Counted from the first letter of the stretch, positions 5,200-49,099 are shown. The stretch is 64,000 nt of DNA from a bacterium (GCA_021108215.1 JAIORK010000036.1:22948-86947); one strand, 5' to 3'. A program made the numbers and translations. Notes: generated by a model not told the origin, from the letters alone.

Positions 5200-5770
5200 C
5201 AAGCTGCCCATTGTATTCGCGCCGGCACGATAAAAAAACAACAACAAGGCCAGGCAGGACATATCCCCGGCTTGGCCTTGTTATATTTCCAGTAAATAGG
5301 CCACCCGCAAGCCGGCACGATAAACATCCGCCCAATGGGATTGCTGTTTGGCTTCAGGTTAATGAAAATCCTGCCAACGGATATTCCGGTGTTTCACATA
5401 ATCATCCCAGACGATCCGCTTGTGCTGAAGTCCGGCTGCCTGAAAAAACATTTCCAATGCAGGTATGGTGAGCAGCGTAAGCATACTTAAGGATTTCCCT
5501 TTGGAATCTTTCGCGCTTTCCTGCAGACAATAATCCCGTTTCTGCGTTTGGGAGCATTATAGCACCAACCCAAACTTTTCTCTGCGTCTGTAAAATGATT
5601 TTTTCATCAGTCTTTCGCCGGCATTCTTTTTTCCGTCCCCGCGTTACCTGTATTCGGCATTTCTATAAAAATGCATTAATGGGTTGATTTTTCTTTGAAA
5701 TATGGTAAAACGTCTATTCTCACGATCTTATTTATCCAAGACACATTCTCAATAGCTGGAGGGCACAAAC

Positions 5771-7702
5771 ATGACAGAACCAACTGTAGAAAAACTTGAA
5801 TTCAAAACTGAGGTCAGCCAACTGCTTGATCTTGTGGTCCATTCCCTTTACTCGCACAAGGATATTTTTCTGCGCGAGCTCATTTCCAATGCCTCGGATG
5901 CGATTGACAAACTCCGTTATCAGGCTGTAACCCAGAGTGATCTTACGGGTGATGATGCTGACTGGAAAATAAAAATCAGCCTGGACAAAGAAAACAACAC
6001 ACTCACCCTTTCCGACAACGGCATCGGCATGAATCATGATGATCTGGTCAATAATCTCGGTACCATTGCCAAATCCGGCACCAAAGAGTTTTTGGCCACC
6101 TTACAGCAAAGCAAGGATAATGTTAATCTCATCGGTCAATTCGGCGTAGGCTTTTATGCCTCCTTCATGGTCGCTGACAAGGTCGAGGTGGTTTCCAAGC
6201 CACCCCAGGACCCGGCGCACCGCTGGGTCTCGGACGGCAAACAGGGCTTTGAGATCACGCCGGATGACAAATCCAAGCGCGGCACGGATATTATCCTTCA
6301 TCTCAATGAAGAAAACCGGACCTATCTGGAAGAATATGAAATCCGCTCTCTGGTTAAAAAATACTCTGATTTTGTCGAGTTCCCGATTTTAATGGATGTG
6401 GAACGTGAGGAAACCCCGCAAGATGCCGAGGGCAAACCGATCGAGAATGCCAAACCAGAGAAAAAAATCATCACCGAGACGCTCAACTCTATGAAAGCAA
6501 TCTGGGCCAAACAAAAAAAAGATGTCACCCCGGAAGAATATCATGAATTTTACCGGCATGTTTCCCATGATTTCACCGATCCTCTAGAAACCATTCATTA
6601 TCACGCTGAGGGAACCATTGAATTCAAAGCCCTCATTTATATTCCCAGTCAGGCACCTTTTGATCTTTTTATGCGCGATTCCCAAAAGGGCATCCAATTA
6701 TATATCAACCGGATTTTTATCATGAGTGATGCCAAAAAACTTATTCCAGCATACCTGCGCTTTCTCAGAGGGGTTGTGGATACCAGTGATCTGCCGCTGA
6801 ATGTCTCGCGCGAAATGATTCAGCAGGATGCCCAGTTGGAAAAAATCAGTAAAAATATTGTCAAGAAAACCCTGGCTACACTCAAAACCATGAAGGATAA
6901 GGATTTTGATAAATATCTGAAATTTTACAAAACCTTCGGCACGGCATTAAAAGAAGGCTTGCACTATGATCATGATAACCGGGAAGCCATTGCCGAACTG
7001 CTGCTTTTTGAGAGCACCAAAACCGAGCCGGGTCAGCTGCGTTCCCTTGATCAGTATTGTTCGGATATGCCGTCTGAACAAACCGCCATCTATTATCATA
7101 CTGCCGAGGACCGGGCATTGGCACTCGCTTCGCCCTATCTGGAAACTTTCCAATCCAAAAATTGGGAAGTCCTGCTCATGTTGGAAGCCATTGATGAAAT
7201 TGTTCTGCCTGATCTTTTTGAATACAAGAAAAAACCGGTCAAACCGATCAATCGCGGGGATGTTGATTTAAGCAGCGAAGAAAAAGAAAAAGCCGAGGCA
7301 GCTCAAAAAAAAGCCAATGAAACCTATAAAGATCTACTCGCTTATATACAGAAAAAACTTGAAAATAATATCAAAGAAGTCCGTTTTTCAAAATTACTCA
7401 AAGACAGCCCGGCCTGCCTGGCATTGGATGATGCCGGCATGACCCGCCAAATGCAGGAACTCTTTAAAGCCATGGGCAAAGAGTCGCCTGAACAAAAAAA
7501 CATTCTGGAACTCAATCCCAATCATAAGGTTGTAGAAACCATGAACACGCTTTTCCAGGAAAACCAAGCCTCAGAAAAATTATCCGACTATGTCTCTTTG
7601 ATCTACGATCAGTCGCTGCTTACCGCCGGGTTCAAGGTCAAAGATCCCCTGGCATTTTCAAAAAGGCTGACACAATTGATGGTGGGACCAACCGCTTCCT
7701 AA
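5771..7702 (+). CDS. htpG: Molecular chaperone HtpG (Hsp90)
   Basis: The Bergerat ATP-binding motifs are present (LRELISNASDAIDKLRY, GQFGVGFYS). It is 643 aa with a GGAGG RBS. Confidence 0.95.
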   Translation: MTEPTVEKLEFKTEVSQLLDLVVHSLYSHKDIFLRELISNASDAIDKLRYQAVTQSDLTGDDADWKIKISLDKENNTLTLSDNGIGMNHDDLVNNLGTIAKSGTKEFLATLQQSKDNVNLIGQFGVGFYASFMVADKVEVVSKPPQDPAHRWVSDGKQGFEITPDDKSKRGTDIILHLNEENRTYLEEYEIRSLVKKYSDFVEFPILMDVEREETPQDAEGKPIENAKPEKKIITETLNSMKAIWAKQKKDVTPEEYHEFYRHVSHDFTDPLETIHYHAEGTIEFKALIYIPSQAPFDLFMRDSQKGIQLYINRIFIMSDAKKLIPAYLRFLRGVVDTSDLPLNVSREMIQQDAQLEKISKNIVKKTLATLKTMKDKDFDKYLKFYKTFGTALKEGLHYDHDNREAIAELLLFESTKTEPGQLRSLDQYCSDMPSEQTAIYYHTAEDRALALASPYLETFQSKNWEVLLMLEAIDEIVLPDLFEYKKKPVKPINRGDVDLSSEEKEKAEAAQKKANETYKDLLAYIQKKLENNIKEVRFSKLLKDSPACLALDDAGMTRQMQELFKAMGKESPEQKNILELNPNHKVVETMNTLFQENQASEKLSDYVSLIYDQSLLTAGFKVKDPLAFSKRLTQLMVGPTAS

Positions 7703-7705
7703 AAA

Positions 7706-7738
7706 ATCGCTTGGGCGGGATTTCCCCGCCCAAGCGAT
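7706..7738 (+). terminator. Perfect 13/14-bp stem-loop immediately after the htpG stop
   Basis: The sequence is atcgcttgggcggg-atttc-cccgcccaagcgat. There is no clear U-tract, so its terminator function is only putative. Confidence 0.4.
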
Positions 7739-7788
7739 CACCTTGCCAAAACATCCTGTTCAACATGTAAAGAAATCCCCGCACTCTT

Positions 7789-7847
7789 GCCCGGCGGACT
7801 TGCCCAGCTTGCCCTGCGTATGCGGGGGCGAATGCCGGGTGCCGGGT
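7789..7847. repeat. REP-like GC-rich dispersed repeat (rearranged copy)
   Basis: Its reverse complement shares the blocks cccggcattcgcc, caagtccgccgg and tacgcagggc with the element at 44129-44175. Confidence 0.45.
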
Positions 7848-7864
7848 CAAAACAAATGACCCTA

Positions 7865-8563
7865 CTAAAATTTCTGTTCCTCAGCCCCGTACCAGGTTTT
7901 GCCGGTCTCGCCAAACGGTTTAGCCAGTAATTCCAGAATCCGAACAGCGCCGTCAACCGGCTCGCCGGGCGCATTGGAACCACCCATATCAGTTTTAAGC
8001 CATCCCGGGTCCAGACTGTTGACCGCCACTTTACCCTGGAGTGCAGTGGCCCACATCATGGTCAATCCGTTCAAAGCGTATTTACTCAAACGATAGCTAA
8101 TCATATCTTTTTCCGTCTGCACCGCTTTTTTGGTTCCGGCACCGGACGAAACATTAATAATCCGGGGTTCCTGACCTTTTTCCAGCCAAGGCAGCAATGT
8201 CCTTATCATCTGCTGAGGACTGTACAAGTTGGTCCACATGGTTTTCTCCATGATTTCCAGGGTATCTTCCTTCGGATGAAGCGTATAGGTCATCACACCG
8301 GCATTATTAATCAGCACATCCAGGCTTCCCCAGTTTTCTTCGACCCAGCTTGCCGCTGCCTGGGCAGCATCAGGATTGCACACGTCGAGGACCAATCCCT
8401 GAAAATCCCCTTTCTCTTCGAGCAAAGCAGCGGTGACTGCCATGCGCTCCTTATCGCGCGAGATCCCCAAAAGGCGGACACCCTTTTCCAATAATAACTT
8501 CGCCGTCTCCCGCCCGATACCACGCGAAACACCGGTTAAAATAATTTTTTTATTTTTGAGCAT
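7865..8563 (-). CDS. SDR family oxidoreductase
   Basis: It has the N-terminal TGxxxGIG dinucleotide-binding motif (ILTGVSRGIGRETAKLL) and a YxxxK context (YRLSKYAL). Confidence 0.8.
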   Translation of the reverse strand: MLKNKKIILTGVSRGIGRETAKLLLEKGVRLLGISRDKERMAVTAALLEEKGDFQGLVLDVCNPDAAQAAASWVEENWGSLDVLINNAGVMTYTLHPKEDTLEIMEKTMWTNLYSPQQMIRTLLPWLEKGQEPRIINVSSGAGTKKAVQTEKDMISYRLSKYALNGLTMMWATALQGKVAVNSLDPGWLKTDMGGSNAPGEPVDGAVRILELLAKPFGETGKTWYGAEEQKF

Positions 8564-8606
8564 AATACCGCCTCACAAAAAAAACATATACTATTTTAAT
8601 GATTAT

Positions 8607-9167
8607 TCAACTCCAAACGATGTTCCATCTCCATTCCTGAGGATTGCCCTCATCAAGACTAACCCGAATATTTTTCAGCCCTAAAATATCTCCCATGCCA
8701 AAAAGATAACCAGTCATATACACGCGCATGTTGGCGTCATAGCCCGGAAAATCACGCAGAACAAAGACCGCCGTGTTTTTTCCCTCACTCTCGATTGAAG
8801 CCTCACCTTCCCGATAAAAACTATGCCATAATTGCGCCACCCGCTTGAAAATAAATTGCGGCGTAGGAATCCGAATAAAAATTTGATAAAACCGGGGCAA
8901 CCCTTCCTTGGCCATTATTTTTCCTGTCTCCCAGAGTGCTTTTTGCAGGTTCCCGGGAAAAAGGACTTTACAGCCTTCATATAAAAATGTTCCCTCATAT
9001 GCCAGTTCCGTCTCAATCCAGGAAATCGCCAGTGTCGTGGATTCCCATATTTTCAATGCTTCCGGCGAAAGATTTTTTTCGAGCTGTTTTATTGCCTCCG
9101 GCCCTTTGTCTTCAATCAATTTTTTAAGTATAATTAATCCGGTTCCTTTAATTTTTGTCATCGTCAT
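8607..9167 (-). CDS. Hypothetical protein (possibly DUF2378-like)
   Basis: It is a 186-aa ORF with coding-like composition. No catalytic motif was recognised. Confidence 0.4.
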   Translation of the reverse strand: MTMTKIKGTGLIILKKLIEDKGPEAIKQLEKNLSPEALKIWESTTLAISWIETELAYEGTFLYEGCKVLFPGNLQKALWETGKIMAKEGLPRFYQIFIRIPTPQFIFKRVAQLWHSFYREGEASIESEGKNTAVFVLRDFPGYDANMRVYMTGYLFGMGDILGLKNIRVSLDEGNPQEWRWNIVWS

Positions 9168-9306
9168 CTCCTGAGTGTGGGGGCCTGCCGCTTCATTTCA
9201 ACCGGTACTGAAGCAGACATTAGAACTATTCCCTGATAAATTCTGTATAATTTAAGTTTATGAGGGATAAAAGTGCTTTGTCAAGCGCCATATCCCCTCC
9301 CCGGCT

Positions 9307-9513
9307 TCAGACCTTTTGAGTCCGGTTATTTCTCATGATACCGGCGATGGAAAAAATGACTAAAACAATTGCAAGTACTGTCCCCGGGGTGATCACCTCC
9401 CCCAGAATAATCCATCCTAAAAAAACTGCGATGACTGGATTAACATAGGTATTGGTGGTAACCAGCTTGTATTTAAAAATGCCCGACCAATATCTTGATA
9501 CCAATACCTGCAA
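9307..9513 (-). pseudogene. 3' remnant of an EamA/DMT-family transporter gene
   Basis: The 68-aa ORF encodes only the last two TM helices of an EamA domain (NPVIAVFLGWIILGEVIT...). It overlaps the 3' end of mntP and has no upstream continuation. Confidence 0.3.
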
Positions 9514-10030
9514 GAATCAACCCTCCCAATATTTCCATGCGTTTCCCCAAAGCCAAACCAAACCGGCAACCAATTTCCAATCCCACCACAGTCATCCCTG
9601 CCGCAACCAAACCAATCAATCCGGCCGGCCAAAAAATGGGTGTCTCAAGTACTGAAAACCCAATTCCAACAACCAAAGCATCAATGCTGGTTGCAATAGC
9701 CAAAGTTAATAAAATCCAACCCTTGGTTGGATCGCCAGATTTCCGCTTTCTATCCGCACCTTGCATACTATCCCAAATCATATGCAACCCCACCAGCAAC
9801 AGCAATATACAAGCAATCCAATGAGATATATCCCTGAAATATCCTACAAATACAGACGCAGCCTTCCAACCGATCACCGACATAGTAAACTGAAAAAATC
9901 CGAACGCCCCTGCCATTCTCATGGTTTGTGTTAAGTTCGGCCGGCATAATTTCACACCCGTGGCGATAGCTACTGCAAAGGCATCCATGCCTAAACCCAC
10001 AGCTACACCTAAAAGCATCCAAAATGACAT
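9473..10030 (-). CDS. mntP: Manganese efflux pump MntP
   Basis: It shows the DUF204 duplicated-domain pattern, with GMDAFAVAIATG and a second SIDALVVGIGFS motif. It is 185 aa with six TM helices. Confidence 0.8.
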   Translation of the reverse strand: MSFWMLLGVAVGLGMDAFAVAIATGVKLCRPNLTQTMRMAGAFGFFQFTMSVIGWKAASVFVGYFRDISHWIACILLLLVGLHMIWDSMQGADRKRKSGDPTKGWILLTLAIATSIDALVVGIGFSVLETPIFWPAGLIGLVAAGMTVVGLEIGCRFGLALGKRMEILGGLILAGIGIKILVGHF

Positions 10031-10065
10031 ATGATATCCCTCTTTGATGAAAATCCGTGTAACAT

Positions 10066-10101
10066 TTCAAAAAAAAACGGCCCCCTTTAAGGGGGCCGTT
10101 T
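10066..10101 (-). terminator. Rho-independent terminator of cspA copy 1 (bidirectional in form)
   Basis: The element is an A-run, then cggccccc-tttaa-gggggccg, then ttt. On the minus strand the stem is followed by a U9 tract, 35 nt after the csp stop. Confidence 0.7.
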
Positions 10102-10135
10102 CAATCATTGGCAAAATTGAATATACTTGTTAAAG

Positions 10136-10676: not shown

Positions 10677-12977
10677 TTATCCGCTTATCTTGATTTGCCC
10701 TCTCAGCTCTTTGGCTGCTGCAACCATGTTGTGCAAGGCATCGTTGACTTCAGGCCAATTTCTGGTCTTCACTCCGCAATCAGGATTAATCCACAATTGT
10801 TCAACCGCCATAACTGCCATTGCTTTTTTCATCCTATTGATAATTGCTTCCTTTTCCGGAACAAGCGGTGAATGGATATCATAAACTCCCGGACCGATAT
10901 CATTGGGATACTTAAATTCACCAAAGGCCGTCAAAAGCACCATATCCGACCGCGAGGCCTCAATCGATATAACATCTGCGTCCATTGCGGCAATGGCATC
11001 CAAAATATCCTCAAAGTCCCCATAACACATGTGCGTATGAATCTGCGTTTCATTCTTAACCCCCGCTGATGCCAATCGAAAACAATCCACTCCCCATTTC
11101 AGATATGCGGGCCATTCGGTTTTTTTCAGCGGCAACCCTTCCCGCAAAGCCGGTTCATCAATCTGTATCACATGAATACCCGCTCGTTCCAAATCAGCTA
11201 CCTCATCCCGAATCGCCAAGGCGATTTGTTGACAGGTATCCTTCCTCGGCTGATCATCACGTACAAAAGACCATTGCAAAATAGTAACCGGTCCGGTAAG
11301 CATGCCTTTCATTGGTTTTTTCGTTAAAGATTGTGCAAAAGAACTCCACGCTACGGTCATCGGTTCTTTTCTTTCCACATCTCCATAAATAATCGGCGGT
11401 TTGACACAGCGAGACCCATAGCTCTGTACCCATCCGTTTTTAGTAAAGACAAAACCATCCAGATGTTCACCAAAATATTCAACCATATCCGTACGTTCAA
11501 ATTCTCCATGCACCAATACATCCAGGCCTATCTCTTCCTGAAATGCGATACACTTTCTTGTTTCTTCCTTTAAAAACTGTTGGTACGCTTCCTGATTCAA
11601 TTTCCCTGATTTTAAATCCCGTCTTTTCAAACGAACCGATTGCGTCTGCGGAAAAGATCCGATCGTTGTTGTCGGCAACAAAGGCAGCCGGAATTTTTCC
11701 TGCTGCATCTTTTTCCGTTCATTAAACGGAGCATTTCTGGCCAGCATCCGGGCAGTAACTTTGCGACCCCGTTCTTTAATCCGTAATTGATTGACTTTTT
11801 CCGATTTTCGTCTGAATTGAACAGCTGCCTGTCTTTTGGTTAATTCATCAGCTATTACACTCTTTCCTTGAGTGCCCACTTTTCCTAAAAGGACTATTTC
11901 ATCCATTTTTTCTTTTGCAAAACACAGCCAGGATTTAATCTCCTCATCAAGCTCGGTTTCTTCTTCCAGGCCAAACGGAACATGCAATAACGAACATGAA
12001 GAACTAATGATTACATTATTTTCACCCAGCTTGGTTATCGCTTTTTCAATCATTGGAATAAAAATCCCCAGATCGCTGCGCCAGATATTCCTCCCATTAA
12101 TCACACCCAGAGACAATTGTTGATCCGGTCTGATGATTTCCAAAACCTGATCAAGTTGTTCCGGCGCTCTAACAAGATCAACATGTAAACCATCGATTGG
12201 ACAATTGACAATGTCATTTAAATAATTTGTGATACCGCCAAAGTATGTGGTTAATTGTATTTTCCATCTTGAATCTACTGATGATAATTGTTTATAGGTT
12301 TTATGAACAGCTGCAGCAACGTCTTCTGCCCGGTCCAAAACCAAACAGGGTTCATCCATCTGAATCCAATCCGCCCCGGCTTCCGCCAATTTATCCAATA
12401 TAGCTTCATAAACCGGCAAAAGTAATGGCAATAATGTTAATACTGATGCCGCGCCATCAACCATTCTTCCCGACAAAAGATAAGAAACCGGCCCAAGCAA
12501 AACAGGCCGGGTATGAATCCCCATTGCCTTGGCCTCTTCAAATTCCCGAACCGCTTTCAATGCATAAAGTTTAAATTCCTGGTTTTCTTTAAATTCAGGA
12601 ACAAGATAGTGATAGTTGGTATCAAACCATTTGGTCATTTCCATGGCGGGAATATTCTGATTGTCGTTTTTTTTACCGCGTGCCATTGCAAAATATAAAT
12701 CAAGATCAATATCACCGTCATTCCAATTGTAGCGTTCGGGCACGGCACCTACCATACAAGTCGTATCAAGAACCTGATCATAAAACGAAAAATCATTGGA
12801 AGGAATAATTCCCAATTGATGTTCCTGCATTAGCCGCCAGTGAGCGACTCTTAATGCTGAAGCAACCTCAAGTAATTCTTCCTTATTTATTTCCCCCCTC
12901 CAATATTTTTCCAGAGCTTTTTTAAGCTCGCGTTTTTTTCCCATTCTGGGAAATCCTAAAACTGCAGTTTTGGCCAT
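10677..12977 (-). CDS. metE: 5-methyltetrahydropteroyltriglutamate--homocysteine S-methyltransferase (cobalamin-independent methionine synthase)
   Basis: Both MetE halves are present, including the C-terminal Zn/homocysteine region (HTHMCYGDFEDIL, DVISIEASRSD). The N-terminus MAKTAVLGFPRMG has an AAGGGGG RBS, so the start was moved from the ORF-track 13091 to 12977. Confidence 0.95.
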   Translation of the reverse strand: MAKTAVLGFPRMGKKRELKKALEKYWRGEINKEELLEVASALRVAHWRLMQEHQLGIIPSNDFSFYDQVLDTTCMVGAVPERYNWNDGDIDLDLYFAMARGKKNDNQNIPAMEMTKWFDTNYHYLVPEFKENQEFKLYALKAVREFEEAKAMGIHTRPVLLGPVSYLLSGRMVDGAASVLTLLPLLLPVYEAILDKLAEAGADWIQMDEPCLVLDRAEDVAAAVHKTYKQLSSVDSRWKIQLTTYFGGITNYLNDIVNCPIDGLHVDLVRAPEQLDQVLEIIRPDQQLSLGVINGRNIWRSDLGIFIPMIEKAITKLGENNVIISSSCSLLHVPFGLEEETELDEEIKSWLCFAKEKMDEIVLLGKVGTQGKSVIADELTKRQAAVQFRRKSEKVNQLRIKERGRKVTARMLARNAPFNERKKMQQEKFRLPLLPTTTIGSFPQTQSVRLKRRDLKSGKLNQEAYQQFLKEETRKCIAFQEEIGLDVLVHGEFERTDMVEYFGEHLDGFVFTKNGWVQSYGSRCVKPPIIYGDVERKEPMTVAWSSFAQSLTKKPMKGMLTGPVTILQWSFVRDDQPRKDTCQQIALAIRDEVADLERAGIHVIQIDEPALREGLPLKKTEWPAYLKWGVDCFRLASAGVKNETQIHTHMCYGDFEDILDAIAAMDADVISIEASRSDMVLLTAFGEFKYPNDIGPGVYDIHSPLVPEKEAIINRMKKAMAVMAVEQLWINPDCGVKTRNWPEVNDALHNMVAAAKELRGQIKISG

Positions 12978-13119
12978 CCTCGGGCCCCCTTTCAAAATAA
13001 AAAACCCTGACCTGTCATGCACGGGGCATAAAACAGACCAGGGGATCATTGAAAGTCCTGCCTTCCGATGATGCTTTCCCGGCTGCTTCACCCCAATCCA
13101 CGAGGGTCAAACAAGTTTT

Positions 13120-13280
13120 TTGTCTTAAGCAGGTCTTCTGGCTTCCGGATCGTTCTACTAACCCAACCTTCCCATCCGTATTGAATAGTGGTCATTTGGG
13201 TGTTCGTCACCGGTTACAGCGGCGGGACCGCGACGGACTTGCACCGTCTTCCCTTTTCATCCTCTCGCGAGGAACATAAG
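13120..13280 (-). promoter_or_regulatory. Cobalamin (B12) riboswitch in the metE leader
   Basis: The minus strand reads AAGGGAAGACGGTGCAAGTCCGTCGCGGTCCCGCCGCTGTAACCGG, which is the conserved cobalamin-aptamer core. It is followed by the B12 box GAAGCCAGAAGACCTGC, which is the reverse complement of 13129-13145. Confidence 0.85.
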
Positions 13281-13298
13281 ACTTTTTTTATTAGATAG

Positions 13299-17246: not shown

Positions 17247-17450
17247 ATGGTACAAGGTAAAGTAAAGTGGTTTAATGATGCAAAAGGATTCGGTTTCTTG
17301 GAGCGCGAAGGCGGCAGTGATGTATTTGTTCATTTCTCAGCTCTCAAAGGCGACGGATTCAAAAGTTTGGCTGAAGGTGAAGCAGTAGAATTTGATGTCG
17401 TTGACGGTCCCAAAGGCCCTCAGGCATCCAATGTTTCCAAACTTGGCTAA
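17247..17450 (+). CDS. cspA: Cold-shock protein (CspA family), second copy
   Basis: The 67-aa product has [12 protein letters not shown] and VFVHFSAL. An AGGAGG RBS is present. Confidence 0.9.
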
Positions 17451-17485
17451 GCAACCCATCCGACAACTCGTTGTATAGGTTTTAA

Positions 17486-17524
17486 TTAAAAACCCCCGTA
17501 CCTTTTGGTGCGGGGGTTTTTAAT
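17486..17524 (+). terminator. Rho-independent terminator of cspA copy 2
   Basis: The element is aaaaacccccgtacc-ttt-ggtgcgggggttttt. It marks the left edge of the AT-rich island. Confidence 0.8.
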
Positions 17525-17597
17525 TTGGGGTAGCGCTACCCTACTGCTCCCCATTAACAAAAGAAGAGTAGTATAAAAGCTCTTTATTTTCCTACTA

Positions 17598-18320
17598 CTA
17601 ATAGCACTCATAGTACGGTGGCTTTTTGGGTGTTGGATATATTTTAGCCGAATAGTGTATGTTTTTTATCTTGTCACGAAATTTGTTTTGCAAAATAATA
17701 TTATTTCTAATTGCTGAAATATACTTATCCAGCGCTATTACTAAATCAACCTTTAAGGCATTAATTGATATCGGCAACCAATATCCAGCATAGTTATTCA
17801 AATGCGTTATTTCTCCGGCAGAATGAACTTGCACTATTTGGAAGTGTTTAACATCAAGCCTTTTTTCAAATATTATTTTGCCATCATTATCTGCTATTTG
17901 GAAATTGTGGCTGTAACTATTTCGTTCACCGTCTTCATCAGAAAATACCAACCACTTTAATATCGCTTTTTTACTTTCGAGATCTATTAATAGATTTTGT
18001 GGATGAAATCTATGACACAATCCATGTCGATACATGTAATAAAACCATTTAACTTCCTGGTCTTTGTAAATACTTGTGTCAAAATAATTACGAATAAATC
18101 CTAACTCAACATCCTCACCATCTTTCCCGAAGGGTCTTTGACCATGAAGATATTCACTCAATTCCAGCACATAACTAAAAAACATCAATGGAATAGTAAA
18201 CTCTCCTATCCCTGCTTTTAGAAGAGCACCCATTTCTAAGAGGATCGAGTTTTTATAATCTTTATCCAAATATTCGATTATCTGGTCACTGCTAACATTT
18301 TTAAATAATTTCCAAGACAT
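17598..18320 (-). CDS. Hypothetical protein of 240 aa in the AT-rich island
   Basis: It sits downstream of and co-oriented with the 777-aa gene, with a 32-bp gap. It has coding periodicity and no recognised motif. Confidence 0.5.
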   Translation of the reverse strand: MSWKLFKNVSSDQIIEYLDKDYKNSILLEMGALLKAGIGEFTIPLMFFSYVLELSEYLHGQRPFGKDGEDVELGFIRNYFDTSIYKDQEVKWFYYMYRHGLCHRFHPQNLLIDLESKKAILKWLVFSDEDGERNSYSHNFQIADNDGKIIFEKRLDVKHFQIVQVHSAGEITHLNNYAGYWLPISINALKVDLVIALDKYISAIRNNIILQNKFRDKIKNIHYSAKIYPTPKKPPYYECY

Positions 18321-18352
18321 ACCTCATCTCCATTTTAGACCACTTATTGATT

Positions 18353-20686
18353 TTATTTAATCGGATGTTTAGAAAGAATTTGTCGTGCTAATTCTTCTCC
18401 GTCATTTGGGCCTGGAAATCCACCTCTTTCCCGTAATCGTTCTTCAAGTTGTTTTTGTCTAAGTAAAATATGTTTTTGTACATTTTTCCATTGTTCTTCT
18501 GTGAAAACCTTCGGTTTTGTTTTAATTTCTTCGTCAACCTTGTTTGCCATATGTGTATTGTTTTTTGCACGCATTACTAATTGAATAGCATAAAAATGTG
18601 CATATATATCACCAATTGCGTAATCATCAGGATTTTTAGAAATTTCGCAATATGATTCCAGGATTGAGCGTATATTTGAAATACATAAGAGTAATACATC
18701 TTGCCACCACTCTCGGGTATAAAATAAAAGGCCTATGTACACCATAGAATCACATGCAATATCAGTCCATTCTTTAAATATGCTCTTCTTTCTATCAAAA
18801 GCAACCCAGTAAAATGACAAAATCCACGTGAATTTATCAACTAATTCTTTCACATCATTTTGGTTAGATCGTAGTGGATTATCTAATATCTGACACACAA
18901 CTTTAGCAATATGCTTAATTAGCTCATTAATCTCCCAAATAAGAAAACTATCTCCAAACTCATTTTTTTCTGCAACATTGCGCAAGTGCCGTGCAATGAT
19001 GTCTGTCATGTCTATTAATTCGTAATATGGATTTGTCGCATCTCGTTCAGGATCTACTTTCGGAAATATAGTTGCAGCCATAGCGAATAAATTCCCGAGT
19101 GAAGTTTGTTCGACAAGACTATATGCCTTTGTAAACGGATGATTCATTGATAGTCTTCCTTGAAGAGTTTCACTAATTATTGCAAAGGGCGCTAAATTTC
19201 CAAGTTTTTGAAAAACTTGGCCAAGTACTTCTTTGAAGTAATAATCTTTATTCCGAAGCATATGGTCAAGGATGATAAAATACTGTTTAATAACTTCTTC
19301 TGCTAATACAGGATTGCGGTTAATATAGAAGTACTGAGCAATTTCTGATATTCCATTTATAACTGGCAAGTGAATGTCTGAGTCATCAACATCCTTCGGA
19401 GTACATTTAATAATTCCAGAAAGCATGCCGCTCGTCTGAAACGGCACCTCATCAAGCCCTTTTGTTTGGGCAATCCTCACGCATGACAACATGTAGTTAA
19501 TTGGTTTCATAGACAATGGTGCAGTGTTCGGCCGGTATTTTCTTGCTCCTAAATTTGCTGTGTGGATAGTAATTTTCTTGTATGCTTCAGAAACACTTAA
19601 AGCTGCGGATTCATCATTTTGTGATATAGCAATACGGCTAATTTCATTTAACATTTCATAGGAACAGCCTGTAACTGCTTCTACATCAGATTGGGAAGTT
19701 AACAGCAATGTATCTGGGCAGGGCAAAATTAGTAAATTTAGCTTTCTTGCAGATAAATAATACATAGTCAAATGAGCAATCGCATACACAGCCGATTTCG
19801 TTAATAGTTTCTCATTTCGAGAAATAGCTTTTACTGCGATCTCAGATAAATCATTAATCCAACTATTGATAGTTTGGGGATAGCCGAACACTTGAGGATA
19901 ATAAATCGTTTCTATATCCTCAATTACCACTCCCTGCTTTTTTTCTTCCGGGAGTAATTTATAATGAAGTCTTGCTGATCGATTAACTGTCTTTTTTATA
20001 CGATCAATTGTTCTCATTGCTTGCTTGAGAGCAAGATTTGTTGAATAAGTTGGATCTAACAGCTTGCATATATGACGATGATACAAGCGTAGCAGATCAA
20101 GACTAAATCCCAGAGTTAATATAGCAACAGCTAATTTCAAGTTTTCTGAAACTCCAGCGAATCCACCCGCAGAAAAAGCAAAGCACGCTATACACAATAT
20201 CGCAAGAGCTACAAACGATGCATTTGTAATTAAGTCTCTCCGATAAAGACGGACAATTGAAGATGACCAAGCTTCTGCTGCACGTTGTATTGGTATAATT
20301 GATAGGGTTAATACAAGTGCCAGAATTGTTCCGTACGTGGCACCAAGTTGAATGAGCATTTTATCTATTGATTGCGTTGTGTTTAATGCTGTTCGCAAAG
20401 GCGGATAACCCAGAATAAATGATGCTATTATAAGGCCAATAATACCTATCATAATCTTGCTTGTTTTCAAAAGCAACCCACGACTAAACGAAGTAATATA
20501 AAACCATAAACGAACAACTTTTATTGTCAAATACGTTTTTATTCGCGTTATTATAGTTTTCAATCCATCACGTAGCGACATAATCATTCGTTTGAAATAT
20601 TTCACTAGTTTTGGCCACCATAGTATTACGTTTGTTGACCATAAATTGCGAATTTTAAAGTATGATTTGTTTTTATTTTGGTTCAT
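18353..20686 (-). CDS. Hypothetical polytopic membrane protein of 777 aa in the AT-rich island
   Basis: The N-terminal ~230 aa contain about six predicted TM helices. The remaining ~540 aa form a helical cytoplasmic region. No recognised catalytic motif was found. Confidence 0.5.
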   Translation of the reverse strand: MNQNKNKSYFKIRNLWSTNVILWWPKLVKYFKRMIMSLRDGLKTIITRIKTYLTIKVVRLWFYITSFSRGLLLKTSKIMIGIIGLIIASFILGYPPLRTALNTTQSIDKMLIQLGATYGTILALVLTLSIIPIQRAAEAWSSSIVRLYRRDLITNASFVALAILCIACFAFSAGGFAGVSENLKLAVAILTLGFSLDLLRLYHRHICKLLDPTYSTNLALKQAMRTIDRIKKTVNRSARLHYKLLPEEKKQGVVIEDIETIYYPQVFGYPQTINSWINDLSEIAVKAISRNEKLLTKSAVYAIAHLTMYYLSARKLNLLILPCPDTLLLTSQSDVEAVTGCSYEMLNEISRIAISQNDESAALSVSEAYKKITIHTANLGARKYRPNTAPLSMKPINYMLSCVRIAQTKGLDEVPFQTSGMLSGIIKCTPKDVDDSDIHLPVINGISEIAQYFYINRNPVLAEEVIKQYFIILDHMLRNKDYYFKEVLGQVFQKLGNLAPFAIISETLQGRLSMNHPFTKAYSLVEQTSLGNLFAMAATIFPKVDPERDATNPYYELIDMTDIIARHLRNVAEKNEFGDSFLIWEINELIKHIAKVVCQILDNPLRSNQNDVKELVDKFTWILSFYWVAFDRKKSIFKEWTDIACDSMVYIGLLFYTREWWQDVLLLCISNIRSILESYCEISKNPDDYAIGDIYAHFYAIQLVMRAKNNTHMANKVDEEIKTKPKVFTEEQWKNVQKHILLRQKQLEERLRERGGFPGPNDGEELARQILSKHPIK

Positions 20687-20788
20687 ATAATCCTCTGAAT
20701 CTATTTTCCTGTCAGCGAAATATAGGGCATTATCGTCAACTTTTAGCGGAATAGCAATTCAAAATATATTACACCGTAAATAGCACCG

Positions 20789-20983
20789 TTATTTTATACA
20801 TGACTGTTTCTTTATGGCTTTTACTACCAAATCACTGATTTCTTGCATTATCTCTGGATCGTATTGGATAAAATCAAGTCTACCGCTGCTTTTATCTTGG
20901 TTTTCTTTTACTACTTCTCGATCCATACGTTCAGTTATGATTTGGAAGACCTTTATATCACCCCGTGCCGCTTGTTTGATCAT
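20789..20983 (-). CDS. Small hypothetical ORF (64 aa)
   Basis: The open frame extends upstream without an alternative start. There is no RBS, so this call is weak. Confidence 0.2.
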   Translation of the reverse strand: MIKQAARGDIKVFQIITERMDREVVKENQDKSSGRLDFIQYDPEIMQEISDLVVKAIKKQSCIK

Positions 20984-21121
20984 GGCGCCTGCAACCTTTT
21001 CCTGGCTGATACTGCCAGTCTCAAACTGTTCCTTGATAACAACATTCCAGTGACTGACTCCACACTTGGCACCGCAGGGATTTCCGCTTTGTCCCTTTCT
21101 TCTAATTAATTCTTTATAAAC

Positions 21122-21152
21122 AAAAAAGAGCCTCCCTTTCGGGAGGCTCTTA
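21122..21152 (-). terminator. Terminator of the XRE regulator gene
   Basis: On the minus strand gagcctccc-gaaa-gggaggctc is followed by a T6 run. Confidence 0.6.
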
Positions 21153-21359
21153 AAGATTCATTAGGTCCTTTAATTTAATCCCCAGCCCATGAGCTATCTT
21201 AGCTAGAGTGGTGAATTGCGGGTCCACAAGACCTTTTTCGATCTTACTTAGGTTGCCTTTGGACATGCCGTTTTCATAAGCTAGGTGTTCCAGGGTAATC
21301 CCCTTCTCCTTCCTTAGCTTATGTATCCTCATGCCCAGTTTTTCGGTTAATTGGCTCAT
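21150..21359 (-). CDS. XRE-family (Cro/C1-type) HTH transcriptional regulator
   Basis: The 69-aa product has the HTH motif (ITLEHLAYENGMSKGNLSKIEKG). Confidence 0.75.
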   Translation of the reverse strand: MSQLTEKLGMRIHKLRKEKGITLEHLAYENGMSKGNLSKIEKGLVDPQFTTLAKIAHGLGIKLKDLMNL

Positions 21360-21647
21360 AATGGAGTTGATTTTACAATATTTTAGGTTTATAGTAGTTT
21401 CTTATAAGAAACTTTTGGAGGTTAAATATGCAAATCTTAAAATCTACAATTCCTTATGTCATTGAATTTTCACCGGATGACATCAATTATTTACATTTGG
21501 CCTGTCATTATTATAAAGATTTACTGAAAAATAATAAGGACATGAAAAAAATCAAACGACGGGATAGACTTAAGCATCTAAACCAAATGATAACGCTCAT
21601 TGATTTGATGATGTGAGGATTATCAAAAAAATATTTTTATATTTGTT

Positions 21648-22214
21648 CTATTTACTCTGCATTGCTAATAGCTCCGCCTTTTTTCCCTCCATCGGGGCTG
21701 AAATATGTATTCGTGATTTTTCTTTTTTACGCTTCTGGCCTCCCTGGTTTAATTTCGAGAGGTTTTCAGATATAAATCTATCAATATTCTCTTTAGCTTC
21801 CACATGAAAGCGAGCCACTCCGTTTTTAATATCCACATCTTTACCAGCCATGTGTATCAATTGATCAAGATACATTTTTACTTTAAATGCATGATATTTA
21901 ATCAAATCAACAATTTTTACCGAAGGCTGGCGAAAACCAATTTCCAAGTGAAGCCCAAGGACGCTTGCATAATTCAATAGATCACCAACAGCGATATCTT
22001 TGTCATAAGAGGATTCGATTTTGGATATTTTCCCCTGGGAACAACCAACTTTTTTCGCCAGTTTGGTCTGCGTGAGTTGGTGTTTGCAACGCAACATGAG
22101 CAGGAATTTGGAAATCATCCGGTTTTCGATTTCATACGCTACGCTTTTCTTGAATTCCTCATCCGTTGAAAGCCCTTCCATCATTTTCATAACATTTTCA
22201 TATTTTTTCGCCAT
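21648..22214 (-). CDS. HTH-XRE domain protein, putative HigA-like antitoxin
   Basis: It has a central HTH (LTQTKLAKKVGCSQGKISKIES). Its start overlaps the stop of the upstream RelE-like gene in an ATGA arrangement. Confidence 0.55.
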   Translation of the reverse strand: MAKKYENVMKMMEGLSTDEEFKKSVAYEIENRMISKFLLMLRCKHQLTQTKLAKKVGCSQGKISKIESSYDKDIAVGDLLNYASVLGLHLEIGFRQPSVKIVDLIKYHAFKVKMYLDQLIHMAGKDVDIKNGVARFHVEAKENIDRFISENLSKLNQGGQKRKKEKSRIHISAPMEGKKAELLAMQSK

Positions 22215-22585
22215 TATTGTCCCCCCTGTTTCATACCCTTTACCTTTTTCTTGTATTCCTCAATATCCCTACTCTGGGACCTCTTATCCCCTATTCCTAA
22301 AAGCACAACCCTCTTTTCCTTTACGTCGGAATAGATATAAAGCCGTGTTTCCTGGAGCTTCTTTCTTATTCCTCCACATCTTTGGTCAATCGCTTTGATG
22401 CCCATGGGTTCCGGATAGACAAACCCCACCTGGACCAACGAAGGCGACCCACACTCACACAAAGTCCTAAAATACGTGTCCAGGTTGTTCAAAACGCACT
22501 TTAATTCATCTTTGTGCTTTTTTTGATAGTGCTTGTGGTCCCTCTCGAAGGATTGCGTCGGTTGGAGATGCCATGGTTCCATCAT
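22214..22585 (-). CDS. RelE/ParE-superfamily toxin (HigB-like gene order)
   Basis: The C-terminal signature ETRLYIYSDVKEKRVVLLGIGDKRSQSRDIEEY parallels RelE (RLVYRVDDE..V.VISVGKRERSEVY). The gene is translationally coupled to the downstream HTH gene. Confidence 0.6.
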   Translation of the reverse strand: MMEPWHLQPTQSFERDHKHYQKKHKDELKCVLNNLDTYFRTLCECGSPSLVQVGFVYPEPMGIKAIDQRCGGIRKKLQETRLYIYSDVKEKRVVLLGIGDKRSQSRDIEEYKKKVKGMKQGGQ

Positions 22586-23034
22586 CGGCTCAATCCGTAG
22601 GTATTGGTATAATTATTCCATATTGGAATATTATCTCTTTTGGTTATATTTGTCAACGCTTCCATAAAACGTTTCCCTCGAATAAGTATCTTGCGTACCC
22701 TTTATTCGTTAGACAATTTTTTCGAGAGTTTCATGCATTTATTACTATTTTTTTTATTCTTTTTACGGATTGATATTGAGGTTGTATTAAGGACTCCTAC
22801 AAGGAATATCATGGTTTTTGGATAAGATGGCTGAAATGAGATAAGGGAAATTGGCTGCTGTGCTCACAGAGTTCTCTTCGCATGAGATTCCCCGTTTGGT
22901 ATCTAAGAAAAACAGAAAAAACCAATCTTCACTACTCGGGAATCGGTTACTACGGTCGCAACATCATGTTGCTCCCTGCGTAACCCCGCCTCGACAGCTA
23001 GCCAAAGACATCTCGTTTTTCATCCCAAAAAACT

Positions 23035-23403
23035 CTATTTTCCTGCTTCCTTTTTATCCAAACCCCTCACCAGTCCGTTGATCATTTTGCAAATTTCATT
23101 AAGATTTTCGTTCAAGTCTAGACAGTTATCTGAATTTATTAATTGTTTGCGTTTACATACTTCAATAATCGGTATACATTCCTGAGCAGATCCTCTAGCA
23201 ATCCAAAAGAACTGTTTGCGTTCTTTTGGATGCCATCTACCGTTTCCTTCTGCCAAATTAGCCGATATGGATAGCGCTGCCCGATTGAGCTGATCAATAA
23301 GGTAATAGTTGCCTTTCGGAAATGTGTCGGTAAGTTTAGATGTCTTTTCTGCAACATCGACCGCTTTTTGGTAAACTTCCAATTTCTCAAACATGAAAGA
23401 CAT
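23035..23403 (-). CDS. Four-helix-bundle protein (TIGR02436 / 23S rRNA intervening-sequence protein family)
   Basis: It has the family pattern MFEKLEVYQKAVDVAEKTSKLTDTFPKG...LIDQLNRAALSISANLAEG...ARGSAQE. Confidence 0.8.
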   Translation of the reverse strand: MSFMFEKLEVYQKAVDVAEKTSKLTDTFPKGNYYLIDQLNRAALSISANLAEGNGRWHPKERKQFFWIARGSAQECIPIIEVCKRKQLINSDNCLDLNENLNEICKMINGLVRGLDKKEAGK

Positions 23404-23602
23404 AGTTCAAACCTCCTATTTGGGTCCTTTATGGTATTAGACTGAAAATAGGAAGATTTCATGCTGGGAAAATGAAAAAAATACAAAAAAAATTGTGAAC
23501 AGCAGATCAGCTGAGCAGCAGACCGCCCTGAATCACATGTGATTCAGGACTCCACCAGAAATAGAAAACCCTGCACCTTATTGGTGCAGGATTTTCTATT
23601 TC

Positions 23603-23677
23603 TGGTAGCGCTACGGGGAATCGAACCCCGGCTTGATGACTGAGAATCATCCGTCCTAGCCGCTAGACGATAGCGCC
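23603..23677 (-). tRNA. tRNA-Glu(CUC)
   Basis: The sequence GGCGCTATCGTCTAGCGGCTAGGACGGATGATTCTCAGTCATCAAGCCGGGGTTCGATTCCCCGTAGCGCTACCA folds as a cloverleaf with a TTCTCAG anticodon loop and an encoded CCA. Its D-arm matches the E. coli tRNA-Glu arm. A perfect hairpin terminator lies directly downstream. Confidence 0.85.
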
Positions 23678-24160
23678 ATGAGCGAAGCGAATAGCTCTGC
23701 TGTTCTGCTGCTCTGATTTCAATAAATATGTACAAGCCAATTCCAACAACTTAAAAATATGATCAGCGGACCAGCCGATAGCAGACCGCTGGTTCGCTTT
23801 TTCCTGCTGTTCTGCTGCTCTGATGCTCACCTGCTCTGCAATTTCGCTTTTTCGAAATTGCGAACCCCGGCTTGATGACTGAGAATCATCCGTCCTAGCC
23901 GCTAGACGATAGCGCCATGAGCGAAGCGAATAGCTCTGCTGTTCTGCTGCTCTGATTTCAATAAATATGTACAAGCCAATTCCAACAACTTAAAAATATG
24001 ATCAGCGGACCAGCCGATAGCAGACCGCTGGTTCGCTTTTTCCTGCTGTTCTGCTGCTCTGATGCTCACCTGCTCTGCAATTTCGCTTTTTCGAAATTGC
24101 GAACCCCGGCTTGATGACTGAGAATCATCCGTCGTCTTGCGCAGCAAGACAGCTCTGCTG
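23622..24160. repeat. Tandem repeat of 239-bp period (2.25 copies); copies 2 and 3 carry truncated tRNA-Glu pseudo-copies
   Basis: Units begin at 23622, 23861 and 24100 with cgaaccccggcttgatgactgagaatcatccgtcctagccgctagacgatagcgcc.... Only copy 1 retains the acceptor 3' strand. In the other copies a gcaatttcg-cttttt-cgaaattgc hairpin replaces it. Confidence 0.8.
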
Positions 24161-24252
24161 TTCTGCTGTTCTGCTGTTCTGCTGTTCTGCTGTTCTGCTG
24201 TTCTGCTGTTCCGCTGTTCTGATGCTCTGCTGTTCTGATGTTCTGCTGCTCT
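24157..24252. repeat. Octanucleotide microsatellite (GCTGTTCT)n
   Basis: There are about seven perfect and five degenerate units. The AEQQNSRT-repeat ORFs predicted here are translation artefacts. Confidence 0.8.
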
Positions 24253-24277
24253 GCCACTCTTTCTCACTACGAAAGAG

Positions 24278-24353
24278 TGGCTGCCGATCCTGGGCTCGAA
24301 CCAGGGACCCCCTGCTCCAGAGGCAGGTGCTCTACCAATTGAGCTAATCGGCA
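24278..24353 (-). tRNA. tRNA-Gln(CUG)
   Basis: The sequence TGCCGATTAGCTCAATTGGTAGAGCACCTGCCTCTGGAGCAGGGGGTCCCTGGTTCGAGCCCAGGATCGGCAGCCA has a U1:A72 pair and a G73 discriminator, as in bacterial tRNA-Gln, with a CTCTGGA anticodon loop and an encoded CCA. Confidence 0.85.
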
Positions 24354-38040: not shown

Positions 38041-38135
38041 CTATTTTAATTTCAGAACAGCAGAGCAGCTGATCAGCAGACCGCAGGTTCACTTTTTTGC
38101 TGTTCTGCTGTTCTACTGCTCACCTGCTCTACGAT
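38041..38135. repeat. Dispersed ~70-bp repeat of the CAGCAGACCGC/GCTGTTCTGCTG family
   Basis: It is about 85% identical to 23761-23838 and 24001-24078 and shares cagcagaccgc with 23520-23535. Confidence 0.5.
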
Positions 38136-48194: not shown

Positions 48195-48740
48195 TTACTT
48201 TTCTATTTGTACTATATATGGTGGGTCAAGTTTTAAGAGTGCATATGTTTTACGAAGAGTTTTTTCTCCTCCAGATCGAATCAGATATTCACCTCGCGTC
48301 GGGATTGTGTCCTTTCTCCAAGATCCATTTTTATAAAGCCATTCCACCTTGATTCCTTTCAGTTCTTGCAAAACAGGATGTATCACCTCAACAACTTTAA
48401 ACGCTGTTGCCCGTTTTTTTTTGCCAAAAGGGTGAGGGATTTCTACTGTTGATGGGATTGATTGCCATTCCTGATCATCAACACTCTTGTATTGAGTTGC
48501 CTTTGCTTGGACACCTCCGGGATCTTTTGCTTCCGGACTATCTGAACAGAAAGCATAGATGGGTTGGGGTTGTGGATTCGCATTAATGTAGTTAATCCAC
48601 TGTCTAATAAATTCTTCTTTTCTATCTTGAAACGACCATAGCGTCCATTCGTTTGCTTCAATTTCCTTTTCTTTACGCCGAAGAATGTCCTCACGGGTTT
48701 CTCCAGCGTGAACTCCTAAACAGTGCCAAAATCCTAGCAT
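48195..48740 (-). CDS. Hypothetical protein (181 aa), third gene of the Panacea/RelE operon
   Basis: It overlaps the RelE-like gene stop by 7 nt. No recognised motif was found. Confidence 0.4.
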   Translation of the reverse strand: MLGFWHCLGVHAGETREDILRRKEKEIEANEWTLWSFQDRKEEFIRQWINYINANPQPQPIYAFCSDSPEAKDPGGVQAKATQYKSVDDQEWQSIPSTVEIPHPFGKKKRATAFKVVEVIHPVLQELKGIKVEWLYKNGSWRKDTIPTRGEYLIRSGGEKTLRKTYALLKLDPPYIVQIEK

Positions 48741-49099
48741 ATTTTCCCAATCCTCCCCCGATCCTCTTTCTCCTTATCCCCTTTAAAATAAATTTCTATC
48801 AACGCCACTTTATTTTCCGCCGCATAATACGCATAGATCACCCTGATCCCGGAATTCGCGCCCCTGCCTTTCAGAGCCTTGCAGGCGAATTTGCGGGCTT
48901 TGTAGATTTTCGGATTTTCAATGCCTAAATCAGGAATGGATACGATGCCCTGGTTATCCTTATCCAGCTTATGATAGAGCTGAAGCTGAACTTTGATAAA
49001 TACATCCAAATCATCTTCCGGGGTTTTGAATCGTTTCCTCAGCTTTTTTAAATCCTTCTCAAATTCCGGCCAGCGTCTGACCTCACTGAATATTTTCAT
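48734..49099 (-). CDS. RelE/ParE-family type II toxin
   Basis: The C-terminal signature is KALKGRGANSGIRVIYAYYAAENKVALIEIYFKGDKEKED. It overlaps the upstream antitoxin gene by 17 nt. Confidence 0.65.
   Translation of the reverse strand: MKIFSEVRRWPEFEKDLKKLRKRFKTPEDDLDVFIKVQLQLYHKLDKDNQGIVSIPDLGIENPKIYKARKFACKALKGRGANSGIRVIYAYYAAENKVALIEIYFKGDKEKEDRGRIGKIC

Follow-up and report, generated by a model that had tools for sequence, protein, structure and literature searches.

An integrase-less, mosaic islet with a tRNA-end repeat between tRNA-Glu and cspA in a Firestonebacteria-like bacterium

Results

An AT-rich islet against the 3' end of tRNA-Glu

We analysed a 64,000-nt stretch of bacterial DNA (GCA_021108215.1 JAIORK010000036.1:22948-86947; hereafter the window, with positions counted from its first letter) and describe here the segment of about 6 kb that separates a tRNA-Glu(CTC) gene from the cold-shock gene cspA. 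We think it probable, though well short of certain, that this segment is an integrase-less, mosaic, horizontally assembled islet in a variable tRNA-Glu/cspA hotspot, and that the geometry of a 56-nt repeat at its ends fits an old integration at the junction of the T stem and the acceptor stem. Judged by its GltX protein the host belongs to a candidate-division FCPU426/Firestonebacteria-like lineage, the nearest known GltX being 69% identical. Both islet junctions recur in independent assemblies (ERZ26872896, ERZ26872897 and SRR15668623).

The tRNA-Glu gene, on the minus strand, has its 3' end towards the AT-rich block. The first-pass annotation of this DNA had reported such a block of about 6 kb against the tRNA end, and both the GC (guanine plus cytosine) and the tetranucleotide profiles bear it out. 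GC content is 36.4% in positions 17541-23480 and 46.9% in the remaining window, and against a window mean of 0.457 (standard deviation 0.030) the islet is the lowest 6-kb stretch of the whole 64 kb. Along the profile GC stays at 0.32-0.39 from about 17500 to about 23500 between flanks of 0.44-0.50 on both sides, and the tetranucleotide distance to the window average peaks at 17.5-22.5 kb. The drop in GC is uneven, with values of 0.41-0.49 at 22000-22750 and 22850-23000. GC at third codon positions (GC3) also varies from gene to gene: 0.27 and 0.30 for the genes of the 777-aa and 240-aa proteins, 0.32 and 0.35 for the open reading frames (ORFs) of 64 and 62 aa, 0.37 for a four-helix-bundle protein, 0.40 for a 188-aa helix-turn-helix (HTH) protein (HTH188), 0.51 for a 69-aa XRE-family regulator (XRE69) and 0.56 for a RelE-like protein of 123 aa, against 0.40-0.56 in host genes. 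The modules differ greatly in GC3, and the islet is a mosaic rather than a single element.

The islet ends carry a direct repeat of the tRNA-Glu end and its terminator

The 11-mer GGTAGCGCTAC has only two exact occurrences in the window, at 17529-17539 and, within the tRNA-Glu gene, at 23604-23614. Allowing up to one mismatch gives 4 matches where 0.22 are expected, a count reached by 0 of 100 shuffles; the four are two near-palindromic sites, each counted on both strands. Among 61 fetched loci the 11-mer is confined to tRNA-Glu genes and to same-strain copies of the islet junction. The repeat of the tRNA end noticed in the first-pass annotation is thus real and rare, and it is longer than first seen: positions 23559-23614 align with 17484-17539 as a 56-nt imperfect direct repeat (44/57 identical columns), with a local alignment score of 45 against 15.8 +/- 2.2 and a maximum of 26 in shuffles. 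Extension anchored at the 11-mer scores 23, which 0 of 2000 shuffles reach and which is found at one other locus, 44739, among 128,000 anchor positions in the window. Outside the 11-mer the two copies are about 72% identical.

The repeat consists of tRNA-Glu nt 65-75, the final 11 that the gene encodes, and the adjoining terminator hairpin. In tRNA orientation the 11-mer runs from G65, the last base of the T stem, through the 3' strand of the acceptor stem (66-72) to A73, C74 and C75; the displaced fragment lacks only the final A of CCA. At both sites the hairpin precedes the 11-mer on the plus strand, and the repeat is therefore direct. The copies bear no relation to each other upstream of G65, where the distal one matches the tRNA module at background level (score 15), and the breakpoint is therefore sharp, at nt 64/65, the T-stem/acceptor-stem junction. 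That junction is one of the three crossover subsites of tRNA-targeting integrases, the others being the anticodon loop and the T loop, and a regenerated tRNA gene together with a displaced fragment is a marker of island ends (PMC4383910).

The stem of the tRNA-Glu terminator takes in the encoded CCA, its flanks are conserved in a relative (locus L001, below), and the cspA terminator hairpin (17484-17525) aligns with it. The distal copy, at 17529-17540, is a perfect 12-bp palindrome, GGTAGCGCTACC. We rejected two further ideas about these sequences. The terminator hairpin is not a genome-wide repeat family, no further copy occurring in the 64 kb; and GGGGAGCAGTAG, which lies 5' of the distal 11-mer, was considered as a fragment of the CTG-rich block upstream of tRNA-Glu, as a deleted second tRNA-Glu might have left it, but its score of 19 is not significant, shuffles reaching up to 23.

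A relative carries the same flanks without the cargo

The informative relative is GCA_030637655.1 (locus L057; GltX 68% identical), the closest one with enough contig, and occupancy of the hotspot is judged from this one genome. Its gene order is parA-parB-M23 peptidase-bactofilin-gltX-tRNAGln-tRNAGlu, followed by a truncated four-helix-bundle gene, about 0.6 kb of non-coding DNA and convergent cspA. From tRNA-Glu to cspA the distance is 993 bp in this relative and 6152 bp here. The L057 locus has none of the seven cargo genes (those of the 240-aa, 777-aa, 64-aa, XRE69, 62-aa, HTH188 and 123-aa proteins), and blastn and tblastx find no match in it to window positions 17491-23269. The first-pass annotation had proposed looking for a related genome in which cspA and tRNA-Glu lie close together, and L057 agrees with this in that 0.99 kb lies between them and the seven genes are missing, though it still has the truncated four-helix-bundle gene and a duplicated terminator of its own. 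We also considered its 0.6-kb filler as a counterpart of the cargo, and rejected this for lack of similarity by either program. Separately, L057 positions 12480-13082 hold a 27-bp perfect inverted repeat (GGTAGCCGCAGGCTTTAGCCTGCGTAT ... ATACGCAGGCTAAAGCCTGCGGCTACC) in non-coding DNA, resembling a miniature inverted-repeat transposable element or a hairpin.

By the same searches the flanks are syntenic. The tRNA-Glu genes are 98.7% identical, the CTG-rich block after the terminator is common to both genomes, the cspA block is 81% identical at the nucleotide level over 358 bp, and the first 148 nt of the four-helix-bundle gene match the L057 copy (51 aa, truncated after about 48 codons) at 72% amino acid identity, a conservation at least that of GltX. 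Because the tRNA-side terminator, the CTG-rich block and the four-helix-bundle gene are common to L057, they are old residents and not a recent insertion. The four-helix-bundle protein, listed earlier as island cargo, keeps its family identity (TIGR02436) but is an ancestral resident. Likewise, the picture of one island starting at the tRNA holds for the foreign composition and for the abutment on the tRNA gene, but not for the tRNA-side DNA that L057 has as well, nor for the mosaic of GC3. The boundary between the older and the newer parts of the locus probably lies within the 449-bp gap at 22586-23034.

The relatives have flank duplications of their own. In L057 the tRNA-Glu and cspA terminators, 0.93 kb apart, are 42/44 identical to each other and unlike those of the window. 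In L001 (GltX 64%), whose contig stops 225 nt past tRNA-Glu, a 55-nt perfect direct repeat (5357-5411 and 5501-5555, the copies 144 bp apart) starts in the 3' half of the tRNA-Glu terminator, and the contig ends inside the second copy. Copies of the tRNA-Glu 3' flank are much more alike within a genome than orthologues are between genomes, and therefore point to gene conversion or to independent events in each lineage. In two other relatives, L059 and L060 (64%), both tRNA-Glu and cspA are lost from this place. Nearer the window strain, the GltX scan returned a 100% identical contig that ends inside tRNA-Gln (L017), and a 911-bp contig (L040) has the same islet junction. We found no empty site in the same strain or species: contigs with identical cspA or 777-aa protein (ERZ26872896, ERZ26872897, SRR15668623) all have the islet.

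A tandem repeat points to a rearrangement hotspot at the tRNA-Glu gene

Directly 5' of the intact tRNA-Glu gene lies a 239-bp tandem repeat in which tRNA-Glu nt 1-56 occur twice (Table 1). Each unit also holds a hairpin (GCAATTTCG/CGAAATTGC), a CTG-rich block and a promoter-like region; the copy number is uncertain, as other assemblies break inside the repeat. A third tRNA-Glu fragment of 34 nt (nt 23-56) directly follows the hairpin GTCTTGCTGCGCAAGAC; in L057 it is the intact tRNA-Glu that comes straight after this hairpin. This third fragment is thus at the orthologous, ancestral tRNA position, and the intact tRNA-Glu of the window is therefore a displaced copy. The T loop (nt 57), where the 5' fragments end, is another canonical crossover subsite. 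The tandem repeat is evidence that the tRNA-Glu gene is a rearrangement hotspot, and the locus duplicates tRNA modules locally.

An 8-bp microsatellite, TCTGCTGT, is repeated 12.6 times at 24154-24254, and related 'CTGCTGTTCTGCTG' blocks occur at 23497-23522, 23697-23836 and 38058-38118 (25 matches against 0.24 expected). These sequences surround both tRNAs and occur at one further intergenic site, each separating a terminator from the promoter that follows, and the relatives carry their own 8-bp-periodic variants at the same places (CAGTTGAG... in L057, GAGAACAG... in L001).

No integrase or integrase remnant is found

As the first-pass annotation had stated, there is no integrase: neither the islet ORFs, nor the other scanned ORFs of the window, nor the six-frame translations of the 449-bp gap hold an integrase or recombinase, and the same ORFs and translations give no credible integrase pseudogene or remnant. 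Its description of an old, decayed element that had integrated into the tRNA gene agrees with the repeat and with the breakpoint at a crossover subsite, but since no integrase pseudogene was found the decayed integrative element stays an inference. A search of viral contigs for an element with the tRNA-Glu 3' 24-mer gave a single match, in a phage-like contig with an array of 29 tRNA genes (L061, IMGVR_UViG_3300047678_000160, positions 5590-10109), which we set aside as irrelevant. That array includes a tRNA-Glu(CTC) with the same 3' 24-mer as the window tRNA, unrelated to the islet, and one gene called as tRNA-Pyl(CTA), a possible amber suppressor.

The main cargo is a 777-aa and 240-aa gene cassette

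The genes of the 777-aa and 240-aa proteins form the most foreign module of the islet and, if the account given at the outset is right, as we on balance believe, its latest addition. The 777-aa protein aligns weakly through its N-terminal region with PF10011 (DUF2254; 16.6 bits, under the gathering cutoff of 28.8); searches of NCBIfam, PADLOC, PHROGs and PDB sequences found nothing. An AlphaFold model (predicted local distance difference test score 84.9) has long hydrophobic N-terminal helices and an all-alpha solenoid; the model's only PDB matches by Foldseek are generic alpha-repeat proteins with template-modelling scores below 0.35. More than 100 homologues of about 740 aa are 32-56% identical, and several have precomputed PF10011 matches. 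A literature search on DUF2254 returned no functional work.

The homologues occur in a range of settings. In L045-L048 they are single genes in a conjugative element beside TraG- and type IV secretion system-type genes; in L049 a tmRNA gene is followed directly by an island that holds the homologue along with an nSTAND3 NTPase and a type ISP restriction enzyme; in L050-L053 the gene stands beside AbiEi/AbiEii and DUF499/DUF1156/helicase genes; and once, in L043, the context is an ordinary chromosomal one. No member was found in phage genomes or viral contigs, and plasmids gave one distant match, at 25% identity on an Ensifer megaplasmid.

The 240-aa partner is not conserved beside other genes of the 777-aa family. 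It has no Pfam, NCBIfam, PADLOC, PHROG or PDB sequence match; its AlphaFold2 model is weak, with no fold match by Foldseek against the PDB; and its family consists of two close homologues and 49 distant representatives. The two genes do occur together in another metagenome (L054, Logan SRR29278628_233191), at 89% nucleotide and 86% and 85% amino acid identity. Homology between L054 and the window stops at 17577, 21 nt beyond the stop codon of the 240-aa gene, and the downstream neighbour differs: L054 has an additional AT-rich gene for a 220-aa protein (1594-2256; weak DUF5677 match, E = 0.04), absent from the window, and then about 190 bp of DNA of 45% GC. This arrangement suggests either that the cassette has a three-gene version or that in L054 it was inserted at another site.

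Table 1. Features of the tRNA-Glu/cspA locus, by position in the window
Feature	Position	Strand	Evidence and remarks
cspA, 67-aa cold-shock protein	17247..17450	+	Pfam CSD E = 3e-29; conserved left flank, convergent with tRNA-Glu
cspA bidirectional terminator hairpin, 19-nt arms	17484..17525	.	Inverted repeat, 95% complementary; terminator part of distal repeat
Displaced copy of tRNA-Glu nt 65-75, GTAGCGCTACC on minus strand	17529..17540	-	Exact 11-mer; distal (left) islet boundary
240-aa protein, no assigned function	17598..18320	-	Sparse family; motif R98-H99-G100..H103..P107
777-aa predicted membrane protein, main cargo	18353..20686	-	N-terminal hydrophobic helices, then large all-alpha solenoid
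64-aa ORF, upstream of 777-aa gene	20789..20983	-	ORF list; called as a gene in independent assemblies too
XRE69, XRE-family HTH regulator, 69 aa	21150..21359	-	HTH_19/HTH_3 E = 4e-11; own terminator 21126-21151
62-aa ORF	21428..21616	+	Divergent from XRE69
HTH188, 188-aa HTH_3 protein, candidate antitoxin/regulator	21648..22214	-	HTH_3 E = 2e-7
123-aa protein, possible RelE/ParE-superfamily toxin	22214..22585	-	Sub-threshold matches only
449-bp non-coding gap	22586..23034	.	No Pfam match in six frames; GC 0.30 to 0.49 inside
Four-helix-bundle protein, 122 aa, '23S rRNA intervening sequence protein'	23035..23403	-	TIGR02436/PF05635
tRNA-Glu terminator hairpin, 24-nt arms	23554..23606	.	Inverted repeat, 96% complementary; terminator part of proximal repeat
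tRNA-Glu(CTC), intact	23603..23677	-	ARAGORN; Rfam tRNA 58.5 bits; nt 65-75 = 23604-23614
Tandem repeat, 239 bp x 2.14 copies	23622..24133	-	TRF, 100% match; directly 5' of intact tRNA-Glu
tRNA-Gln(CTG)	24278..24353		ARAGORN, Rfam

Other genes of the islet and of the window

The remaining islet genes (Table 1) include a co-oriented, overlapping operon in which the start of the HTH188 gene, at 22214, overlaps the stop of the gene for the 123-aa protein. HTH188 gives sub-threshold matches to HipB/Y4mF-type antitoxin models. The 123-aa protein matches TIGR02683 at E = 1e-3 (19.4 bits, cutoff 62.85) and a PHROG 'toxin' family at E = 6e-3, and has no PDB sequence match. Of the RelE-like/HTH pair named in the first-pass annotation, the HTH_3 partner and the overlapping arrangement stand, but the RelE label is sub-threshold only. 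The four-helix-bundle protein is a clear member of its family (PF05635, 102.2 bits against 33.8; TIGR02436, 96.3 bits against 24; model positions 1-107/109), and the 64-aa ORF has no family match in Pfam, NCBIfam, PADLOC or PHROGs. Against the known anti-phage systems of PADLOC-DB v2, the 777-aa and 240-aa proteins match no component, and only generic HTH models hit the XRE proteins.

Elsewhere in the window there is a second low-GC patch at 55549-60110 (GC 0.37-0.42). At 59388-60110 a 240-aa AbiEii-family nucleotidyltransferase toxin gene overlaps the start of the gene for a 1280-aa protein with an N-terminal HTH_3 only, and together they may make up an AbiE-like pair that is unusual for its giant partner. 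A 272-aa protein (49083-49901) with HTH_3 and a SocA/Panacea antitoxin domain is followed by a 181-aa ORF (48195-48740), at about 0.41 GC, and this pair may be a Panacea-type toxin-antitoxin module. A cobalamin riboswitch (13111-13294, 124.5 bits) lies upstream of a metE-like gene (10677-13091).

Discussion

We favour, without great confidence, the view that in this lineage a variable hotspot lies between tRNA-Glu(CTC) and cspA, which converge on each other, and that here it is filled by a 6.1-kb islet that was assembled in layers. The oldest layer, beside the tRNA, would consist of the tRNA terminator, the CTG-rich block and the four-helix-bundle gene; newer layers would be the possible RelE-like/HTH pair and the XRE regulator that faces a small divergent ORF, with the AT-rich 777-aa and 240-aa cassette arriving last. 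A plausible founding event, and in our view the likeliest mechanism, is site-specific integration at tRNA-Glu. A tyrosine-recombinase element would have integrated at the T-stem/acceptor-stem junction, regenerating the tRNA end and pushing the original end towards cspA, and its integration module would have been lost afterwards. The site may then have served as a landing pad at which cargo was added or replaced. Integration is supported by the configuration at the distal boundary, where a fragment of the tRNA 3' end lies in direct orientation 3' of the gene and breaks off sharply at a known subsite. Hotspots flanked by tRNA genes are landing pads for diverse mobile elements (PMC10250203; PMC10121019).

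Several observations weigh against this account. No integrase, excisionase or recognisable remnant of either is present in the islet, in the scanned ORFs of the window or in the 449-bp gap, and no true empty site or attP junction was found, every contig of the strain having the islet. The tRNA-proximal flank, where a simple integration model expects the DNA of the element, is common to L057 (and the terminator flanks extend to L001), and the similarity between the two ends runs on into a lineage-specific terminator, a sequence not expected in an incoming attP. L057 and L001 have flank duplications of their own, and there is the local tandem duplication of tRNA-Glu, so that duplication or gene conversion could make such a repeat, and the event that brought the cargo need not have been the one that left the flanking repeat.

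A possible, though in our judgement not probable, explanation is accordingly that the repeat is a relic of duplicated 'tRNA-Glu + terminator' modules or of terminator gene conversion, the cargo having come in between the copies by homologous or illegitimate recombination at the hotspot, with no site-specific integration into the tRNA gene at all. The same locus does hold a perfect 239-bp tRNA-Glu tandem duplication and a third fragment at the ancestral position, genome-specific copies of the tRNA-Glu 3' flank exist in L057 (0.93 kb apart) and L001 (0.14 kb) that resemble each other within one genome much more than orthologues do, the tRNA-proximal flank is ancestral and no integrase is present. 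However, the distal breakpoint is sharp and falls exactly at a canonical crossover subsite with no residual similarity 5' of nt 65, where the apparent fragment of the CTG-rich block is not significant; a 3' end fragment in direct orientation on the 3' side is the configuration of integration; and gene conversion over about 45 bp of imperfect homology would be inefficient. We regard it as improbable that the islet is a functional integrative mobilisable element moved in trans by an integrase encoded elsewhere in the genome and acting on the GGTAGCGCTACC repeats. Both ends retain an intact 11-bp core, with a perfect 12-bp palindrome at the distal one, the pairing of the XRE gene with a small divergent ORF looks like a regulatory switch, and the cassette is clearly mobile between contexts, but the assemblies carrying the strain show no excised or empty form, the 64 kb hold no relaxase, oriT-type, excisionase or integrase gene, the repeats have diverged to about 72% identity outside the 11-mer, and the content is a mosaic that includes an ancestral gene.

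Hardly any weight attaches to the idea of a native region that is AT-rich through poor expression or fast evolution, with the 11-mer a coincidence of the palindromic acceptor stem. XRE69 and the RelE-like gene do have host-like GC3, and the four-helix-bundle gene is ancestral, but the repeat is far beyond chance, GC3 in the cassette is 0.27-0.30 against 0.40-0.56 in host genes, the 777-aa homologues ride on mobile elements, L057 lacks all seven cargo genes at an otherwise syntenic locus, and the cassette recurs at 89% nucleotide identity in a different context when the closest GltX has 69% protein identity. The L057 comparison and the L054 cassette effectively refute it. A more ambitious proposal, which we hold to be unlikely, is that the tRNA-Glu 3' flank in this candidate phylum is an actively renewed cassette-exchange site served by a trans-acting recombinase that recognises GGTAGCGCTACC or the hairpin, and that the 777-aa and 240-aa genes are an undescribed two-gene conflict or defence system that is brought to such sites; it builds on the genome-specific copies of 'tRNA end + palindromic terminator' in three genomes and on the breakpoints of the tRNA fragments at nt 57 and nt 64/65, which are both integrase crossover subsites.

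Returning to the mosaic islet with an old tRNA integration, its cargo probably has a role in conflict between elements or in phage defence or addiction, as judged solely from the gene neighbourhoods of homologues. This is guilt by association, and the empty PADLOC, PHROGs and fold searches count against it.

The islet resembles known systems in part. The islands in tRNA genes catalogued by Islander (Hudson, Lau & Williams 2015) are 2-200 kb long, with a tyrosine integrase as a required filter (PMC4383910). Like them, the islet has an intact tRNA gene at one end, a displaced 3' fragment in the same orientation 6.07 kb away on the 3' side, a T/acceptor breakpoint, a length within that range, atypical composition and accessory genes. 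Unlike them, it lacks a tyrosine integrase, its fragment is only 11 nt long, the similarity continues into the terminator, and the tRNA-proximal part is common to a distant relative. It is also similar to the hotspots flanked by core genes beside tRNA or tmRNA genes, in being a size-variable, low-GC segment between conserved flanks, one of which is a non-coding RNA gene, and in holding a mosaic of toxin-antitoxin-like and conflict-type genes and not one mobile-element family. Defence hotspots of this kind are the Pseudomonas cDHS1 and cDHS2 (PMC10250203) and those of E. coli (PMC10121019); compared with cDHS1 and cDHS2, the islet is small (6 kb against the cDHS1 median of 26 kb) and has no recognised defence system by PADLOC.

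Likenesses of individual genes are also partial. The 777-aa protein approaches DUF2254 (PF10011) in the weak alignment of its N-terminal region and in the precomputed matches of many homologues, but it is itself sub-threshold (16.6 against 28.8 bits) and has a C-terminal alpha-solenoid of about 450 aa. The pair of the 123-aa protein and HTH188 is like HigB/RelE-HigA modules in that a small upstream ORF with weak RelE/ParE matches overlaps a downstream HTH_3 gene, and differs from them in the far sub-threshold match of the putative toxin and in its long HTH partner (188 aa).

Islets of this sort, next to a tRNA gene and lacking an integrase, are common, and the finding is therefore mostly routine. 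It maps the anatomy of a tRNA-linked variable hotspot in a barely studied, uncultured FCPU426/Firestonebacteria-like lineage. It also illustrates that a repeat of a tRNA end may be found where tRNA modules have been duplicated locally, so that integrase-mediated insertion is not proved by a short att-like repeat on its own. Finally, two uncharacterised families are found together in different contexts at 89% nucleotide identity, a membrane/alpha-solenoid protein of about 740 aa and a sparse family of about 220 aa with an R-H-G..H..P motif, and because the 777-aa family recurs in conjugative elements and defence-type islands, they are reasonable candidates for functional screening.

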